DNA of 64,000 nucleotides, from contig JAIXQG010000002.1 in assembly GCA_027485835.1 (NCBI GenBank), positions 138,232 to 202,231 on the forward strand, read 5' to 3'. Below are positions 3,432 to 31,134 of this stretch, in pieces. The stretch is from Alphaproteobacteria bacterium. GTDB taxonomy: Bacteria > Pseudomonadota > Alphaproteobacteria > UBA2136 > UBA6156. A model generated the notes under the pieces. The model made no database searches. It was not told the origin of the DNA and was given only the letters and a program-made list of their open reading frames with translations. Position numbers and translations under genes: made by a program. Positions within the stretch are counted from its first letter, which is position 1. Each line of letters begins with the position of its first letter.

Positions 3432-3827
3432 ATGCAGGTTATTGTTATTCTTCTGATCGGTTGCCTTATATTCAACCTTTTTTGGGGTAGAATTCTGTTA
3501 GCCTTGATGGAATCGCTATCTGATTCTCCGATTCCATACTACCGCACCATCGCACTATCCTCAGTTATTTACATTGGTGCTGTCTTCTATATCCTCGGTA
3601 TCGAAGACTATCACTATTATTACAAGGAAAAAATAATGCCTGTTTTCTTTGTCTTAACGATCTTCGGGCTTTTAGTTTTCACATTCAGAAGACTGATCGC
3701 CCGCTATGCAAGATTAAGTAACGAACACGCTATCATAAACTCACGGTCGGCGATTTATGTCTCGGCAATATGGATCAGTCTTTCTATCTATGTTTTTTGG
3801 TATGAGAACTTGAAAGACTTCATATAA
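3432..3827 (+). CDS. hypothetical 4-TM membrane protein (131 aa), low-GC inserted gene
   Basis: Complete ORF with its own promoter, SD and a downstream bidirectional terminator. Composition is strongly AT-skewed relative to its neighbours. It sits between rpoA and rplQ, which are normally adjacent. Confidence 0.6.
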   Translation: MQVIVILLIGCLIFNLFWGRILLALMESLSDSPIPYYRTIALSSVIYIGAVFYILGIEDYHYYYKEKIMPVFFVLTIFGLLVFTFRRLIARYARLSNEHAIINSRSAIYVSAIWISLSIYVFWYENLKDFI

Positions 3828-3845
3828 AAAACCACGCACAAAAAA

Positions 3846-3870
3846 GGAGCTTTCGCAGCTCCTTTTTTAT
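3846..3870. terminator. bidirectional rho-independent terminator (aaaaaaggagc-tttcgc-agctcctttttt)
   Basis: Perfect hairpin flanked by an A-run on one side and a T-run on the other. It terminates both the + strand insert gene and the - strand rpoA. Confidence 0.65.
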
Positions 3871-5890: not shown

Positions 5891-6058
5891 TTATGCCTGG
5901 GTAACGCTGTAACGACCGGTCTTACCGTTCTTACGCTTGTCGCGCATGACGATACGAATACGGCCCAGGAACTTACCGGCCTTGTTACGGGTACGACGTA
6001 CCACTTGCAGTTTACGGTCGCGCACTTTTTCAGCGCGGATGGACGAGGCGTAACGCAT
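5891..6058 (-). CDS. 55-aa very basic protein in the rpmJ (bL36) syntenic position; possible divergent Cys-less bL36-like ribosomal protein
   Basis: Not in the ORF track (<60 aa). Translated manually: MRYASSIRAEKVRDRKLQVVRRTRNKAGKFLGRIRIVMRDKRKNGKTGRYSVTQA. An SD (aaggaag) precedes the ATG. Codon usage is CGT-rich like the neighbouring r-protein genes. It shows weak pattern similarity to bL36 (MKVRxSVK...RRGR...). Confidence 0.4.
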   Translation of the reverse strand: MRYASSIRAEKVRDRKLQVVRRTRNKAGKFLGRIRIVMRDKRKNGKTGRYSVTQA

Positions 6059-7266: not shown

Positions 7267-8646
7267 CTAGGATTTCCTGACGGGCGTGCGGATAAGACCA
7301 CCTTTGCCGCCCTTCATGCTGGTTTTCTTCAGCAGGCTTTCGTATTTCTGGGCAATCAGGGCCGATTGGATGCGGGAGACCGTATCGATCGTCACGCTCA
7401 CCATAATCAGCAGCGAGGTACCACCGATATAGAACGGCAGCGTCGCGTCGCGGTGAAGGATATCCGGCACGGCACAGATAAACGCCAGATACAGTGCGCC
7501 AATGGCGGTCAGGCGGGTTGCCACGCCATCCAGATAGCTGGCGGTGCTGGCACCGGGGCGGATACCGGGGATGAAGGCGCCGGACTTTTTGAGGTTGTCG
7601 GCCGTTTCTTCCGAGTTAAATGCTACGGTGGCCACATAGAAGAACGCGAAGAAGATAATCATGGCCACAAACAACGCCAGATACAGCGGTTTACCAGGAG
7701 TGAGCCATGCACCAATGAACTGCGCCCATGCCGACTCCGGCGCGTACGAGGACATCGTGACAGGCACCATCAACAGCGCACTGGCAAAAATGGGCGGAAT
7801 CACACCGGCAAGGTTCAGCTTGAGCGGCAGGTGGTTATTGTCGCCTGCGGTTGCCCCAAACATACCCTGACGCTTGGGATATTGAATGGCGATACGGCGG
7901 GTGGCGGTTTCCATAAAGGTAATGAAGAAGATGGCCGCAACCGCACCGATGGCGATGACAAACACCAGCAATTCGGAAATGGAACCTGTGCGGGCGAGTT
8001 CGAAGATCTGGAACACTGAGGCGGGCATAGTGGCGACGATACCGGCGAAAATCAGCAGCGAAATGCCGTTACCGATACCGCGGACGTTGATTTGCTCGCC
8101 CAACCACATAAGGAACATGGTGCCGGTGGTGATGGTAAGTGCGGTTTGCAACTGGAAGGCCAGACCGGGGTTGGTGACGAGGTTCATCACTTCGCCATTC
8201 ACAATTGCTGTTTGGTATTGAATGCCGGAAGCCAGACCAAAACCTTGCACAAAAGCAAGCACTACGGTGAGGTATCTCGTGTACTGGTTGATCTTACGAC
8301 GACCAACTTCACCTTCCTTTTTCAGCTCACTCAGCGTGGCCGAGGTTGAGGTAAGAAGCTGGATGATAATGCTGGCAGTGATGTAAGGCATGATATTGAG
8401 CGCGAACACGGCCATGCGCGAAAACGCCCCGCCGGAGAACATGTTGAACAGACCGAACAGGCCGTTTTGCAGGTTCTGCTGATAGCTGGCCAGAACAGTG
8501 ACATCGACACCCGGCAGAGGGATGTGCGTACCGAGACGGTAAATGATGAATGCAAACAGCACAAACAGGATGCGGGTGTGCAAACCTTTGGCTTTGGTGA
8601 GAAGTTCGGCGACTTCCGATTGGGAACCGAGACCGAATTGAGCCAT
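7267..8646 (-). CDS. secY: preprotein translocase subunit SecY
   Basis: 459 aa multi-TM protein with SecY motifs (GIxPYIxASII, etc.). Confidence 0.97.
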   Translation of the reverse strand: MAQFGLGSQSEVAELLTKAKGLHTRILFVLFAFIIYRLGTHIPLPGVDVTVLASYQQNLQNGLFGLFNMFSGGAFSRMAVFALNIMPYITASIIIQLLTSTSATLSELKKEGEVGRRKINQYTRYLTVVLAFVQGFGLASGIQYQTAIVNGEVMNLVTNPGLAFQLQTALTITTGTMFLMWLGEQINVRGIGNGISLLIFAGIVATMPASVFQIFELARTGSISELLVFVIAIGAVAAIFFITFMETATRRIAIQYPKRQGMFGATAGDNNHLPLKLNLAGVIPPIFASALLMVPVTMSSYAPESAWAQFIGAWLTPGKPLYLALFVAMIIFFAFFYVATVAFNSEETADNLKKSGAFIPGIRPGASTASYLDGVATRLTAIGALYLAFICAVPDILHRDATLPFYIGGTSLLIMVSVTIDTVSRIQSALIAQKYESLLKKTSMKGGKGGLIRTPVRKS

Positions 8647-8774
8647 GAAACGATAATTCTCCTAACTAAAAATACTTTCCCCTTTTACGCGAAAGGCTTG
8701 GCTACCGCAAGGTTAGTTAGCTGTTTAAGTGGCGCGCGGGTGGTGGAAATTGCGGCACTACCGGCCATAATAGG

Positions 8775-8812
8775 TAGGATAAATAACGAAACGGCGCCAC
8801 GCGGGCGCCGTT
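8775..8812 (-). terminator. hairpin (ggcgcc-cgcgt-ggcgcc) + T-rich tail downstream of the inserted ORF189
   Basis: Minus-strand reading acggcgcccgcgtggcgccgtttcgttattt. Confidence 0.4.
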
Positions 8813-8832
8813 GTTGTTCGCTTCTTAGTTTA

Positions 8833-9402
8833 CTAATGGAGAGGGTCCAGCAAAATAGGCCCCTTCTCGCCCGAGAGGATATCCACAGCTTTTGTGCTAA
8901 ATCCAAACGGATGCCCGACCGCCAAGCTACGTATGAGGGTAAGAGCCTTCGCAAGATACGGATACTCGCGATGATAACTTACTATTAAGTCCTGAATGTC
9001 CGGCGCGACTTTTGATGGATCAGGGAACCGATACACCGCCATAATGGTTGCAAACCAATGCTCCGCTACCTCCGATGACACCGTTTCATATCTCTTCAGC
9101 AACGCGACATTGTCCCGGTAACGATAGATATGCGGCAGATTGGGATAGTCCTCCGGAACAACGTCCGGCTGCCGAAGCCGCCGCGCAAAGGCGTCGTACC
9201 CTTGCCACATAATGCTTTCTTCGCAGAATTTAAATACCGCAGGCGTATCATCCTTCATAAAAATACGGGCAGAGCCCGGTACATGCGCCTGATACCAGCC
9301 ATGGTCTGCTAGAATTCTCCGAAAGGCTTCAGGCGTTTCTTCGCGATACTTATCAAACAGGCTGAGCGCCTGCCATTTCGGAATTTCGGCACGTACAAAC
9401 AT
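8833..9402 (-). CDS. hypothetical cytoplasmic protein (189 aa, aromatic-rich) inserted between rplO and secY
   Basis: Complete ORF in operon orientation. A rho-independent terminator lies upstream and a hairpin downstream. Composition is lower-GC than the flanking r-protein genes. No family recognised. Confidence 0.55.
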   Translation of the reverse strand: MFVRAEIPKWQALSLFDKYREETPEAFRRILADHGWYQAHVPGSARIFMKDDTPAVFKFCEESIMWQGYDAFARRLRQPDVVPEDYPNLPHIYRYRDNVALLKRYETVSSEVAEHWFATIMAVYRFPDPSKVAPDIQDLIVSYHREYPYLAKALTLIRSLAVGHPFGFSTKAVDILSGEKGPILLDPLH

Positions 9403-9454
9403 GCGCTACCCTTTTGAAAACGTTCCTCGTAGACCTTGCTTATCCTTCATTTGA

Positions 9455-9490
9455 AACAAAAAAACAAGCCCCGGTGTACCGGGGCTTGTT
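9455..9490 (-). terminator. rho-independent terminator right after rplO (caagccccgg-taca-ccggggcttg + T7)
   Basis: Perfect 10-bp stem followed by ttttttt on the minus strand. Unexpected inside the spc operon. Confidence 0.6.
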
Positions 9491-9506
9491 GAAAGCAAAG
9501 GGCTAA

Positions 9507-10049
9507 TTACTTAGCGGCTTTGGCCTTTTGGCTGGTTTCAGCGGTGCGTTCTGCCTTGGGCAGGTAGCGGCCGATGTTTTCCTTCTTCTCGATCAGGGTC
9601 AGAGAGCCACCGGCTTTCTTCACCTTTTCGGCAGCGCTGGCAGAGCAGGCTGCAGCAGTAATGGTCAGCTTGGTCTTCAGTTCGCCGTTACCGAGGATCT
9701 TCAGACCGTCGTAACCCTTCTTGGTCAGACCGGAGGCGATGATGCTCTCAACGGTTACCGGCTTGGAGGCATCCAGACGACCGTCTTCGACCATCTTCTG
9801 CAGCGTACCGAGGTTTACGGTCGCGTAAGTGGTGGTGAAGTTGGTGTTGTTGAAACCACGCATCGGCAGACGACGGTAGAGCGGGTTTTGACCGCCTTCG
9901 AACCCTGCACGCACGTTACCGGATTTACGGGCCTTTTGACCCTTTACACCACGGCCGGAGGTTTTGCCCTTGCCGCTACCGATACCACGACCAACACGGG
10001 TCTTGGACTTGTTCGCGCCTTGGTTATCGCGGATTTGGTTTAATTTCAT
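9507..10049 (-). CDS. rplO: 50S ribosomal protein L15
   Basis: 180 aa with 'MKLNQIRDNQGANKSKTRVGRGIGSGKGKTSGRG', uL15. Confidence 0.95.
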   Translation of the reverse strand: MKLNQIRDNQGANKSKTRVGRGIGSGKGKTSGRGVKGQKARKSGNVRAGFEGGQNPLYRRLPMRGFNNTNFTTTYATVNLGTLQKMVEDGRLDASKPVTVESIIASGLTKKGYDGLKILGNGELKTKLTITAAACSASAAEKVKKAGGSLTLIEKKENIGRYLPKAERTAETSQKAKAAK

Positions 10050-10126
10050 GACTCGGTTTCCCTATATTTGCCATTAATAATTTATTTAAGAGAGAGGTAG
10101 GGCGGCGTTCACCGCCCCTGCCCTCA

Positions 10127-10927
10127 CTACTCTTGGGTGCCTTCAGCAGCCGGAGTTTCGGTGGCTGCCTTCATGCTTTGGGCCTTGGTAACGGTAACGA
10201 CCTTCGGCGCGTCGGTGCGGCGGCCAGCGCCAGCTTCACGACGGGGCTTGGAGTCGCCATCCTTGCGGGGACCACGGCCACCATCGCGACCGCCACGGGC
10301 CGGAGCAGCCTTCTTGGCCTTTTGGGCCTTGGCGGCGTTTTCCAGCATTTCCTTCTGGTCGCCCACGCCCTTCACAGCTTCTACAGCGTGCAGGGTCAGG
10401 TCGGTTACCTTGAGACCACGCTTAGCAGCGATGCTGCGCGGGGTTTCAATGGCAGCAAAGGCGGCAAAGGTGGCGCGGATCAGGTTGAACGGGTTGGTAG
10501 AACCCATAGCCTTAGCCACAACGTCCTTGATGCCCATGGCTTCAAAGATAGCGCGCATTGGGCCGCCGGCAATGATACCGGTACCCGGCACGGCCGGCTT
10601 GATGATCACGCGGGTAGCGCCGAAACGGCCTTGCACGTCGTGGTGAATGGTGCGGCCTTGGCGCAGCGGTACACGTACCATGGTGCGCTTGGCTTCGTCG
10701 GTGGCCTTACGTACGGCGTCCGGAACTTCCTTAGCCTTACCTTGACCAAAGCCTACGCGGCCGGCTTCGTCGCCAACAACAACCAATGCACCGAAGGACA
10801 TGCGACGGCCACCCTTAACGGTTTTGGCTACGCGGCGTACGCCAACGAGCTTGTCGACGAATTCGCTGCGTTCACGCTCTTCGCGGTTGTTCTCGCGGCG
10901 GCCTTCAAATTGACGGGGTTCGCTCAT
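10127..10927 (-). CDS. rpsE: 30S ribosomal protein S5 with ~80-aa Lys/Arg/Gly/Ala-rich C-terminal extension
   Basis: Alphaproteobacterial-type N-terminal extension plus the uS5 core ([24 protein letters not shown]...). Extra C-terminal tail '[24 protein letters not shown]...'. Confidence 0.93.
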
Positions 10928-11308: not shown

Positions 11309-11561
11309 ACTATGACTGCTCCTATTCTGGTTAACCCCCCTGCCCTATGCGTGGGGGAAGTTGCCACGGTTCTGCGCCTGCATGGGCACCGACCCGTGGA
11401 AAGAGCAAGGCCAACCCAAAGGTGGCAATGCTTAGCCGGTATATGGCGGTAAATGAAGAGTTTGGCAAGGGTTGTTGTAGGAAATTATGATAAAAACACC
11501 CCAAAACAAAAACCCCGCTTGCGCGGGATTTTTGCATCGCTTGGCAGCGAGTTCCGAAGAA

Positions 11562-22363: not shown

Positions 22364-22539
22364 GTTGTTTTTTCCTTATGATAGACCCCACGCGCGGCTG
22401 GGGTGTGCGCCGAGAACCGTTCCTCGTATAGATTTCCTTCCGTTTTAGAGGGTTAAAATGATTATAGATTCACGCATTCTAGTTATTAGTATACACAATG
22501 AATACACCAATTCAAGTATACAAATCAGTTTGGTTCCTA

Positions 22540-22572
22540 AAAAAAGGGCCCCGTGGGGCCCCTTCTCGTTGC
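22540..22572 (-). terminator. rho-independent terminator after rpoC (ggggcccc-acg-gggcccttttttt)
   Basis: Hairpin followed by T7 immediately after the rpoC stop. Confidence 0.65.
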
Positions 22573-22578
22573 GGTCTG

Positions 22579-26703
<4,125 letters not shown>

Positions 26704-26718
26704 AGTGCCAGCCTTTCT

Positions 26719-31134
<4,416 letters not shown>

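Follow-up and report, generated by a model that had tools for sequence, protein, structure and literature searches.

A putative accessory gene with a predicted T7 gp0.7-like kinase fold between rplO and secY in uncultured Alphaproteobacteria

The S10-spc-alpha cluster of ribosomal protein (rp) genes is usually treated as an invariant, co-transcribed block, and an additional reading frame within it raises the question of how the frame came to be there, what it encodes, and whether it separates the genes on its two sides. Such a frame, here called ORF189, lies between rplO and secY in a 64,000-nt stretch of alphaproteobacterial DNA (the window), at positions 9402..8833 of the minus strand, and encodes a 22-kDa protein of 189 amino acids. 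A first-pass annotation had described the succession of rplO, a hairpin with seven T residues, a 189-aa frame, a second hairpin and secY, and had proposed that the frame was inserted into the operon and placed secY under separate control. All of these elements were found, on the minus strand, so that the observation itself is confirmed, and its interpretation is partly supported. On balance we think it probable that ORF189 is a genuine accessory gene in a clade-wide slot, that its product has a remote T7 gp0.7 kinase (T7K)-like fold, and that the genes around it form separate transcription units.

The gene, its family and its slot

The segment 8647-9506 is exactly the rplO-secY intergenic interval of an rp cluster that is read from the minus strand in the order S10...L6-L18-S5-L15-ORF189-SecY-Adk-IF1-(55-aa ORF)-S13-S11-RpoA-L17. 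On the upstream side rplO (10049..9507, minus) encodes the 180-aa ribosomal protein L15/uL15 (Pfam Ribosomal_L27A, E 4e-23), which carries a 12-aa C-terminal tail that is absent from relatives with an empty site. On the downstream side secY (8646..7267, minus) encodes a protein of 459 aa (Pfam SecY, E 4e-107) and is preceded by an AGGAG Shine-Dalgarno sequence at 8663-8659. ORF189 begins with ATG, with AAGGG located 6 nt upstream of the start. The earlier description of the frame as lower in GC and rich in aromatic residues was borne out, as its GC content is 51.2% against 55-56% in the flanks, its third-position GC (GC3) 0.54 against 0.66-0.73, and F, Y and W together make up 13.8% of the protein.

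The window was compared with relative genomes and contigs, designated L002, L003, L084, L089, L090, L091, L093, L096 and so on. Between ORF189 and its orthologue in L003 dN is 0.455 and dS about 2.4 (saturated), giving an omega of about 0.19 and therefore indicating purifying selection; ORF189 is a real gene under constraint. In the same comparison the gene stands out from its surroundings. Nucleotide identity to L003 is 85-100% in the flanks and only 44-65% in the block from about 9500 to 8790, while amino-acid identity is 98% for S5, L15 and SecY and 93% for Adk, against 50% for ORF189. The dS of the flanks ranges from 0.20 to 0.88, far from the value of about 2.4 for ORF189, whose dN divergence is 12-35 times that of the flanking genes. 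Its nearest relative (59% identity) is found in L002, despite the fact that the L15 fragment of L002 is 67% identical to that of the window; over the same L15 region the window and L003 share 95%, and the window and L093 82%. The ORF tree is therefore incongruent with the flanks, which may reflect either allele exchange from one lineage to another, perhaps with recombination in the conserved flanks, or a different sorting of ancient paralogues, and L002 still has two copies. Such fast divergence, combined with presence in some relatives and absence or replacement in others, is what accessory or conflict genes typically show.

The family is very small. In a word-indexed search of 5.8e9 proteins three were returned, namely ORF189 itself and two relatives at 59% and 48% identity, and an exhaustive HMMER profile search of 1.84e9 representatives gave eight proteins, six of which are credible members of 177-201 aa and two of which are long repeat proteins and probably spurious. 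One further member was recovered by an alignment-seeded search, and the family alignment and profile used below hold nine sequences. Across members that are 17-59% identical the columns F16, L31, G35, K58, Y69, P87, L89, P90 and W116 are invariant. The first-pass annotation had placed the protein in no known family and, at the level of sequence, this still holds: ORF189 gave nothing significant against Pfam, NCBIfam, PHROG and PADLOC, tblastn against 50,697 phage genomes produced no match, and none was found in metagenome contigs scanned with alignment A1. A HicA toxin, for which an above-threshold Pfam match with the catalytic His in GSH would be expected, was considered and rejected. The Pfam HicA_toxin match (E 0.05, 14 bits against a cutoff of 27) is below threshold and covers residues 28-55 only, which form part of the kinase N-lobe in the model described below, and HicA matches in the PDB had an E of 1.4.

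Comparison of rplO-secY synteny showed that, depending on the genome, the slot holds a gene of the same family, an unrelated ORF or nothing. The arrangement of rplO, family member and secY is found in the window, in L003 (SecY 98% identical), in L093 (83%) and in L096 (78%, on a 1.1-Mb contig). In L002 a family member lies 3' of rplO and is followed by a second, distant tandem paralogue; this paralogue (L002 1057-1356; 27% identity, HMM E 4e-8) stands directly after the first copy and behind a terminator of its own, and the family can evidently undergo tandem duplication. Of the closest relatives (SecY 90-96%), L084 and L091 have nothing in the slot, rplO being followed by 176 nt and then secY, and L089 and L090 have an unrelated 131-aa ORF there. 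No relatedness to ORF189 was found for this 131-aa ORF or for the other small slot ORFs. As a separate observation, the 131-aa ORF (L090 3443-3838, GCA_003241595.1; also in L089) matches the TipAS antibiotic-recognition domain below threshold, with 19 bits where the cutoff is 23.8 (E 0.0017). Other family members lie directly 3' of infB (L097, L109) or of miaA (L107), and one lies beside fliQ on the opposite strand (L095), such that eight of the nine contexts are immediately downstream of a translation gene (rplO, infB or miaA).

The claim that the gene had been inserted was not sustained by these comparisons, given that the same family occupies the same slot in L003, L093 and L096 and lies 3' of rplO in L002, with SecY divergence down to 78% identity. 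The window, L003, L090 and the outgroup L093 all have the 12-residue L15 tail (...KAER|TAExSQKAKAAK), and only the empty-site genomes L084 and L091 lack it; their empty state is therefore most simply a derived deletion. No signature of a mobile element was seen at the locus, whether target-site duplication, terminal inverted repeats, transposase or integrase; only short chance repeats were present. A gene in this position is nevertheless a departure from the usual layout, as the annotation had held, with an ORF189 homologue at rplO-secY in none of 78 other alphaproteobacterial genomes, whose SecY is no more than 56% identical to that of the window. Among the matches listed, the best SecY identity to GTDB species representatives is likewise 56%, to assorted Alphaproteobacteria. 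Judging from these patterns, ORF189 appears to be a long-standing, lineage-specific accessory gene in a variable rplO/secY slot and not a recent operon-splitting insertion. It would belong to a clade of uncultured Alphaproteobacteria, with contigs of up to about 1 Mb, in which one sublineage presumably lost the slot gene by deletion and another has an unrelated ORF in its stead. The genome of the window matches metagenome run SRR16126897 and is related to assemblies GCA_005768725.1 and GCA_003241595.1. Metagenome-assembled genomes of close relatives have been deposited under the names 'Pseudomonas fluorescens' and 'Blastochloris viridis', evidently in error. The annotation had named a conserved, lineage-specific operon member with known function as the case that would speak against it; ORF189 is conserved and lineage-specific, which corresponds to half of that case.

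The predicted fold

Remote homology searches and structure prediction point to a protein-kinase-like fold for the 189-aa protein, with T7 gp0.7-type kinases as the best matches. An AlphaFold2 model made with the nine family sequences has a pLDDT of 90.1 and a pTM of 0.84. With three sequences the pLDDT was 47.7 and the model unusable, and it was the distant members from the exhaustive profile search that made the difference. The modelled chain consists of two N-terminal helices, a beta-hairpin bearing K58, a helix, two strands, three helices and a terminal beta-hairpin, and it ends 3 residues after D186-P187. The 50 matches listed by Foldseek against the PDB were only protein-kinase-like folds (APH, RIO2, CK1, MEK1, FN3K and choline/ethanolamine kinases), with E values from 2e-3 and probabilities of up to 0.98. 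Against predicted viral structures the E values were 3.6e-7 to 1e-5 and the query TM-scores (TMq) 0.5-0.6, and the matches were mostly 'protein kinase' proteins of T7-like phages together with small uncharacterised phage proteins. The top viral match, A0A7L7SMK1, has been discussed as a T7K homologue (PMC13645617).

To the structural evidence can be added a comparison of profiles. A gp0.7 kinase-domain alignment of 12 sequences (T7, T3, six diverse phages and four database homologues) was aligned by hhalign with the nine-sequence family profile at a probability of 85% and an E of 6.4e-6, over 181 columns from end to end. The score of 43.6 compares with 13.2+-2.8 (maximum 21.0) for column shuffles, 22.1+-2.5 (maximum 31.9) for block shuffles and 9.7 for the reversed profile. 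The diverse gp0.7 profile was required for this result, and hhalign against the single T7 gp0.7 sequence was not significant (probability 3.8%). In the resulting register T7K K93 corresponds to K58 of ORF189, Y105 to Y69, GIPxVY to NLPxIY, N200 to D174, and D213-P214-V215 to D186-P187-L188. The beta3 lysine (VIKVG in T7K) is invariant in all nine members. The DP motif has the family consensus DP[LVI], with E-P and E-T in two distant members, and D174 is conserved except for a Q in P0017; K58, D174 and D186-P187 are thus kept across about 20% sequence identity.

T7K-type kinases are reported to disarm bacterial defences by hyper-promiscuous phosphorylation, and the kinase domain of T7K comprises residues 1-242, in which a G76F mutation is catalytically dead (PMC13645617). 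A DPV motif in place of DFG is a hallmark of T7K homologues, which in 2026 were reported to be 'found almost exclusively in phages' (PMC13645617). Like T7 gp0.7 (PF27024), ORF189 is predicted to consist of an N-lobe and a minimal C-lobe that ends soon after the metal-binding motif, it has DP(V/L) in the place of DFG, and its motifs are collinear with those of the phage protein (VIKV/VFKF with the lysine, AAYxAF/GYDAF, GIPxVY/NLPxIY, VVLDxL/ALLKRY and IRxFF/LIRxL). Unlike T7 gp0.7, it has no glycine-rich loop LGxGxFSAA, in which G76 is essential to T7K; at the corresponding position ORF189 reads AHVPGSARIF, and this segment varies from one family member to another. In the catalytic loop FDxHxGN, ORF189 has S169 for D195 and K171 for H197, two residues that the family does not conserve, and D174 for N200. 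A more canonical relative, P0014, has DDVLQRADGT. The C-terminal shut-off/DNA-binding domain is also absent, the protein is shorter by about 50 N-terminal residues, and it goes undetected by PF27024 or by HMM-to-sequence search. Its gene, moreover, is encoded in a cellular rp operon; with rplO and secY as flanks and housekeeping genes in the rest of the window, the context is not that of a phage or prophage. At E <= 1 none of the nine members had a canonical Pkinase, APH or RIO match in Pfam, and a PDB sequence-profile search found no kinase at E <= 10. Taken from the model and the profiles, ORF189 would be a remote, remodelled relative with the T7K fold and DP motif and not a bona fide member of the T7K family.

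RIO and Bud32, which act on the translation machinery, and the Shigella effectors OspG/NleH (about 196 aa) are likewise small kinase-like domains that lack an activation loop and the substrate-binding C-lobe helices, and RIO2 is among the Foldseek matches of ORF189 (probability 0.96). Unlike ORF189, however, these proteins keep the canonical catalytic Asp/Asn and P-loop. ORF189 also has no sequence match to their Pfam families, and OspG was not among the structural matches listed; the resemblance is one of analogy only.

On the basis of these features ORF189 would be a cytoplasmic, C-terminally truncated protein with a protein-kinase-like fold remotely homologous to the kinase domain of T7 gp0.7. 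It would have retained the ATP-anchoring beta3 lysine K58, an acidic D174 at the position of the metal-binding Asn and the T7K-specific metal-binding DP(V/L) motif D186-P187-L188; the glycine-rich loop, the Asp and His of the catalytic loop and the shut-off domain would be gone. Such a protein might bind ATP-Mg through K58, D174 and D186. Because the glycine loop and the catalytic base are missing, it would be expected to be an atypical kinase or ATPase of weak activity, or a pseudokinase that binds nucleotides, and not a hyperactive kinase in the manner of T7K.

Proposed transcription units around the slot

Directly 3' of rplO lies a hairpin with a T-run (9490..9456, minus) that resembles an intrinsic terminator. 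The hairpin, AACAAGCCCCGG-taca-CCGGGGCTTGTT (9490..9463), begins 17 nt past the rplO stop codon and its stem runs into TTTTTTT (9464-9458). The first-pass annotation was right about the hairpin and its seven T residues and slightly off about the stem, which was given as 10 bp of GC and has 12 pairs, 8 of them G-C. With a dG of -22.8 kcal/mol (z -5.0 against shuffles) this is the top-ranked terminator-like site across 17 kb, and it is present 3' of rplO in all six genomes with an occupied slot, with compensatory double changes at 8 of 13 pairs. A G+C-rich stem-loop, a U tract just past the stop codon and a conserved structure, the features by which intrinsic terminators are recognised, are thus all present in hairpin 1. 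The second hairpin, AACGGCGCC-cgcgt-GGCGCCGTT (8812..8790, minus), was also found before secY as described, 20 nt past the ORF189 stop and 143 nt ahead of the secY ATG at 8646. It has 9 pairs, a dG of -19.8 kcal/mol (z -3.2 against shuffles) and a weak, interrupted T tract (TCGTTATTTA), and the stem forms in each genome compared, with an imperfect alignment register. In the empty-site genomes a GGAGCC-gcaa-GGCTCC-TTTTTGGTTTT hairpin with a T-run follows rplO directly and aligns with hairpin 2 of the occupied genomes; hairpin 2 thus appears to be orthologous to the single post-rplO hairpin of the empty sites.

Between hairpin 2 and secY two further elements are conserved. The first is a box, TGCCGCAATTTCCACCACC (8757..8739, minus), which is near-invariant in six genomes, the empty-site ones included (window, L003, L084, L090, L091 and L093). 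Its common form is TGCCGCAA(T/A)TTCCACCA, with CC after the box in the fuller form; some 30 nt separate it from the putative secY -35 hexamer downstream, it stays constant even where the surrounding sequence varies, and it may serve to bind a regulator or as an UP element. The second is a promoter-like element (8710..8682, minus) made up of TTGCGG (8710-8705), a 17-nt spacer and TAAAAG (8687-8682). The pair TTGCG(G)-N17-(CG)TAAAA occurs before secY in the six genomes with invariant hexamers, the spacer varying in L090 and L093, and we read it as a putative secY promoter. A structured secY leader or riboswitch-like element was rejected, as the leader folds no better than shuffles (z +1.2) and the conservation fits a promoter better. 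The 64-kb window contains no tRNA genes and no RNAs at the Rfam gathering level, and the sub-threshold small RNA matches at hairpin 1 are merely terminator-like stems. Each of the six occupied slots has a further, weaker pattern, (C/G)TTG..-N16-18-(T/G)ATA.., at a fixed place that coincides in part with the 3' arm of hairpin 1. In the window it reads CTTGTT (9468-9463), an 18-nt spacer and GATAAG (9444-9439), a putative weak ORF189 promoter (9468..9439, minus) that may drive the slot gene.

The gap between rplO and secY in the 78 other alphaproteobacterial genomes has a median of about 98 nt and a maximum of 438, and a terminator-like hairpin lies in it in 7 of the 78. The proposal that an insertion placed secY under separate control did not survive the comparison with the empty-site genomes. 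Because these also have a terminator-like hairpin with a T-run after rplO and the same secY promoter-like element, along with the upstream box, ORF189 is not what would uncouple secY, and the separation of secY looks like a property of the clade and not a consequence of ORF189.

The architecture that can be proposed for the clade consists of rplO, terminator hairpin 1, the slot gene where there is one, hairpin 2, the conserved box, TTGCGG-N17-TAAAAG and secY. Transcription of the rp genes would probably be largely halted at hairpin 1, and low-level expression of the slot gene would come from read-through or from the weak promoter over the 3' arm of hairpin 1. Hairpin 2 would close the unit of the slot gene, and secY-adk-infA and the genes downstream would be transcribed from a promoter of their own whether the slot is filled or not. 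Like phage 'morons' and accessory hotspots, the slot has the layout of a unit complete in itself, with a possible promoter, a gene and a terminator, set among conserved genes; close relatives differ in what it holds, be it a member of the same family, an unrelated ORF or nothing. Unlike them, it lies in a cellular rp cluster, holds a single small gene and has no integrase or repeats.

Rival readings and the wider gene cluster

That a recent foreign cassette with its own terminators split the spc operon, and so put secY, adk, infA, rpsM, rpsK and rpoA under new control, is a reading to which the GC and GC3 of ORF189, both below those of the flanks, lend some colour, as do the empty slot in the close relatives L084 and L091, the lack of a gene at rplO/secY in other Alphaproteobacteria and the incongruent ORF tree, by which cassettes do move. 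We consider it quite unlikely, given that the same family occupies the same slot down to 78% SecY identity, that the post-rplO hairpin with its T-run and the secY promoter-like element are kept in the empty-site genomes, that the polarity of the L15 tail points to deletion in those genomes, and that neither flanking repeats nor mobility genes are present. Still harder to credit is a non-functional remnant or spurious ORF in an enlarged spacer. The tiny family, the lack of annotation and the atypical codon composition would fit it, but conservation along the whole length of the protein in more than 8 genomes, at identities as low as 21% and with K58, Y69, P87, L89, P90 and W116 unchanged, an omega of about 0.19, a confident AlphaFold model and a Shine-Dalgarno sequence at the correct spacing have effectively refuted it already. 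As to what the fold might do, the top PDB matches in Foldseek were APH(2''), APH(3''), APH(3') and MphH (E 2e-3 to 2e-2), and an APH/Mph-type antibiotic phosphotransferase that shields the ribosome from aminoglycosides or macrolides would suit both the rp-gene context and the sub-threshold match of the alternative L090 slot gene to TipAS (thiopeptide recognition; E 0.0017). No member of the family (0 of 9) matches Pfam APH, however, the protein ends 3 residues past DP and so is without the C-terminal helical substrate-binding subdomain of APH, there is no HGDxxxxN catalytic loop, and T7K-type kinases match better by several orders of magnitude; a resistance enzyme therefore seems very improbable.

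A different role is proposed if ORF189 is a conflict gene, either a domesticated relative of a phage kinase that serves in anti-phage defence, for example by sensing phage T7K-like kinases or acting as a decoy for them, or a minimal-kinase effector secreted by a host-associated bacterium in the way of OspG/NleH, with its position in the operon incidental. A decoy or effector role is suggested, speculatively, because the protein evolves very fast and the gene is present, absent or replaced among close relatives, and the tree incongruence, the homology to a phage anti-defence kinase, the contigs of about 1 Mb, suggestive of a small-genome and possibly dependent lifestyle, and the one family member beside the type III export gene FliQ agree with it. 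Set against this are the lack of a PADLOC match, of defence or secretion genes neighbouring ORF189 within the window and of an evident signal peptide (judged by eye only), and the finding that eight of nine contexts are translation operons and not defence islands. We regard the conflict gene as unlikely, and it partly overlaps the accessory-gene explanation that we prefer, from which it differs in biological role and not in molecular nature. For the latter, a partner that is part of the translation apparatus can be proposed speculatively from the sequence contexts, because eight of the nine members lie directly downstream of translation genes. Put more broadly, and only tentatively, a cellular lineage may have domesticated a phage T7-kinase-like domain as a chromosomal gene in translation operons (after rplO, infB or miaA), to act on the translation or secretion machinery, as a nucleotide-dependent regulator or a pseudokinase, or to divert phage kinases as a decoy, with the gaps at rplF/rplR, rplO/secY and rpoA/rplQ serving as exchangeable slots bounded by terminator and promoter.

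Several points weigh against the accessory-gene explanation. The homology to T7K rests on comparison of profiles and of structures with moderate scores (85% probability), HMM-to-sequence searches between the ORF189 and gp0.7 families were not significant (best E 0.75), the precomputed Pfam field of the ORF189 family is empty where T7K homologues carry PF27024, and the AlphaFold model was built on only nine sequences. A protein without the glycine loop and the catalytic Asp could be unable to bind nucleotides at all, and the link to translation could be mere hitch-hiking in conserved, highly expressed operons. A consensus promoter scan does not call the putative ORF189 promoter in the window, and termination, both promoters and ATP binding are all things that we infer. 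With dS saturated, omega and the exchange of alleles are approximate.

The terminator-plus-variable-ORF layout of the rplO/secY slot is also seen at rplF/rplR and rpoA/rplQ. At rplF/rplR (window 11309-11561) a CCCGC-gcaa-GCGGG hairpin with a T-run follows rplF and is succeeded by 253 nt of non-coding sequence. In relatives the same gap (L003 256-702, L084 746-1915, L089 640-1278, L091 1233-1824, L093 3007-3772) holds differing small ORFs, several of them hydrophobic and only some interrelated (for example L084/L085 and L089, about 40% identity). The rpoA/rplQ gap of the window contains a strongly hydrophobic 131-aa ORF on the strand opposite to the operon (3432-3827, plus), beside a bidirectional hairpin at 3838-3870. 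Elsewhere this gap holds an unrelated 115-aa same-strand ORF (L084 8898-9245) or none (L089), and the rpoA/rplQ ORFs had no Pfam matches. Like the E. coli spc operon (rplN...rpmD-rplO-secY-rpmJ), the window retains the order S17-L14-L24-L5-S14-S8-L6-L18-S5-L15-SecY-Adk-IF1-S13-S11-RpoA-L17. Unlike it, the window has terminator-like hairpins 3' of rplF and rplO, a secY with a putative promoter-like element of its own and no rpmD, and the clade has variable accessory ORFs in the rplF/rplR, rplO/secY and rpoA/rplQ gaps.

Other features of the cluster may be recorded here. The gene for L30, rpmD, is absent between rpsE and rplO (10050-10927, minus), which are separated by a gap of 77 nt. S5 is unusually long at 266 aa; its C-terminus is extended by about 75 aa of basic, low-complexity sequence, the end of which has a vague resemblance to the N-terminus of L30. 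A very basic 55-aa ORF (5891-6058, minus) lies between infA and rpsM. Its conservation in L003 and L090 is 94-100%, and on visual inspection it resembles an extended L36 (rpmJ), though it has no Pfam match. An antisense ORF of 2827 aa (22498-30981, plus) runs across rpoB and rpoC because TTA, CTA and TCA codons are almost wholly avoided there (0 in rpoC, 3 in rpoB), and comparable long antisense ORFs lie over rpoA, secY and the S5-L18 genes.

With about 10 sequences the ORF189 family is very small, and the immediate impact of the finding is moderate. Its surprise lies in the reported restriction of T7K homologues to phages and in the presumed rigidity of the spc operon. A remote, catalytically remodelled T7K branch in a bacterial rp operon would extend a nearly phage-only family to cellular genomes, and the branch appears to be maintained at the rplO/secY position, though alleles seem to have been exchanged between lineages. 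As a natural minimal version, in which the lysine and DP are kept and the glycine loop and catalytic Asp are lost, ORF189 would be useful for asking what a DPV-type active site needs. The S10-spc-alpha cluster is here punctuated by conserved terminators and putative internal promoters and hosts variable accessory genes, and if this is true, exchangeable slots in the rp cluster would represent a previously undescribed genome plasticity inside the most conserved bacterial gene cluster.

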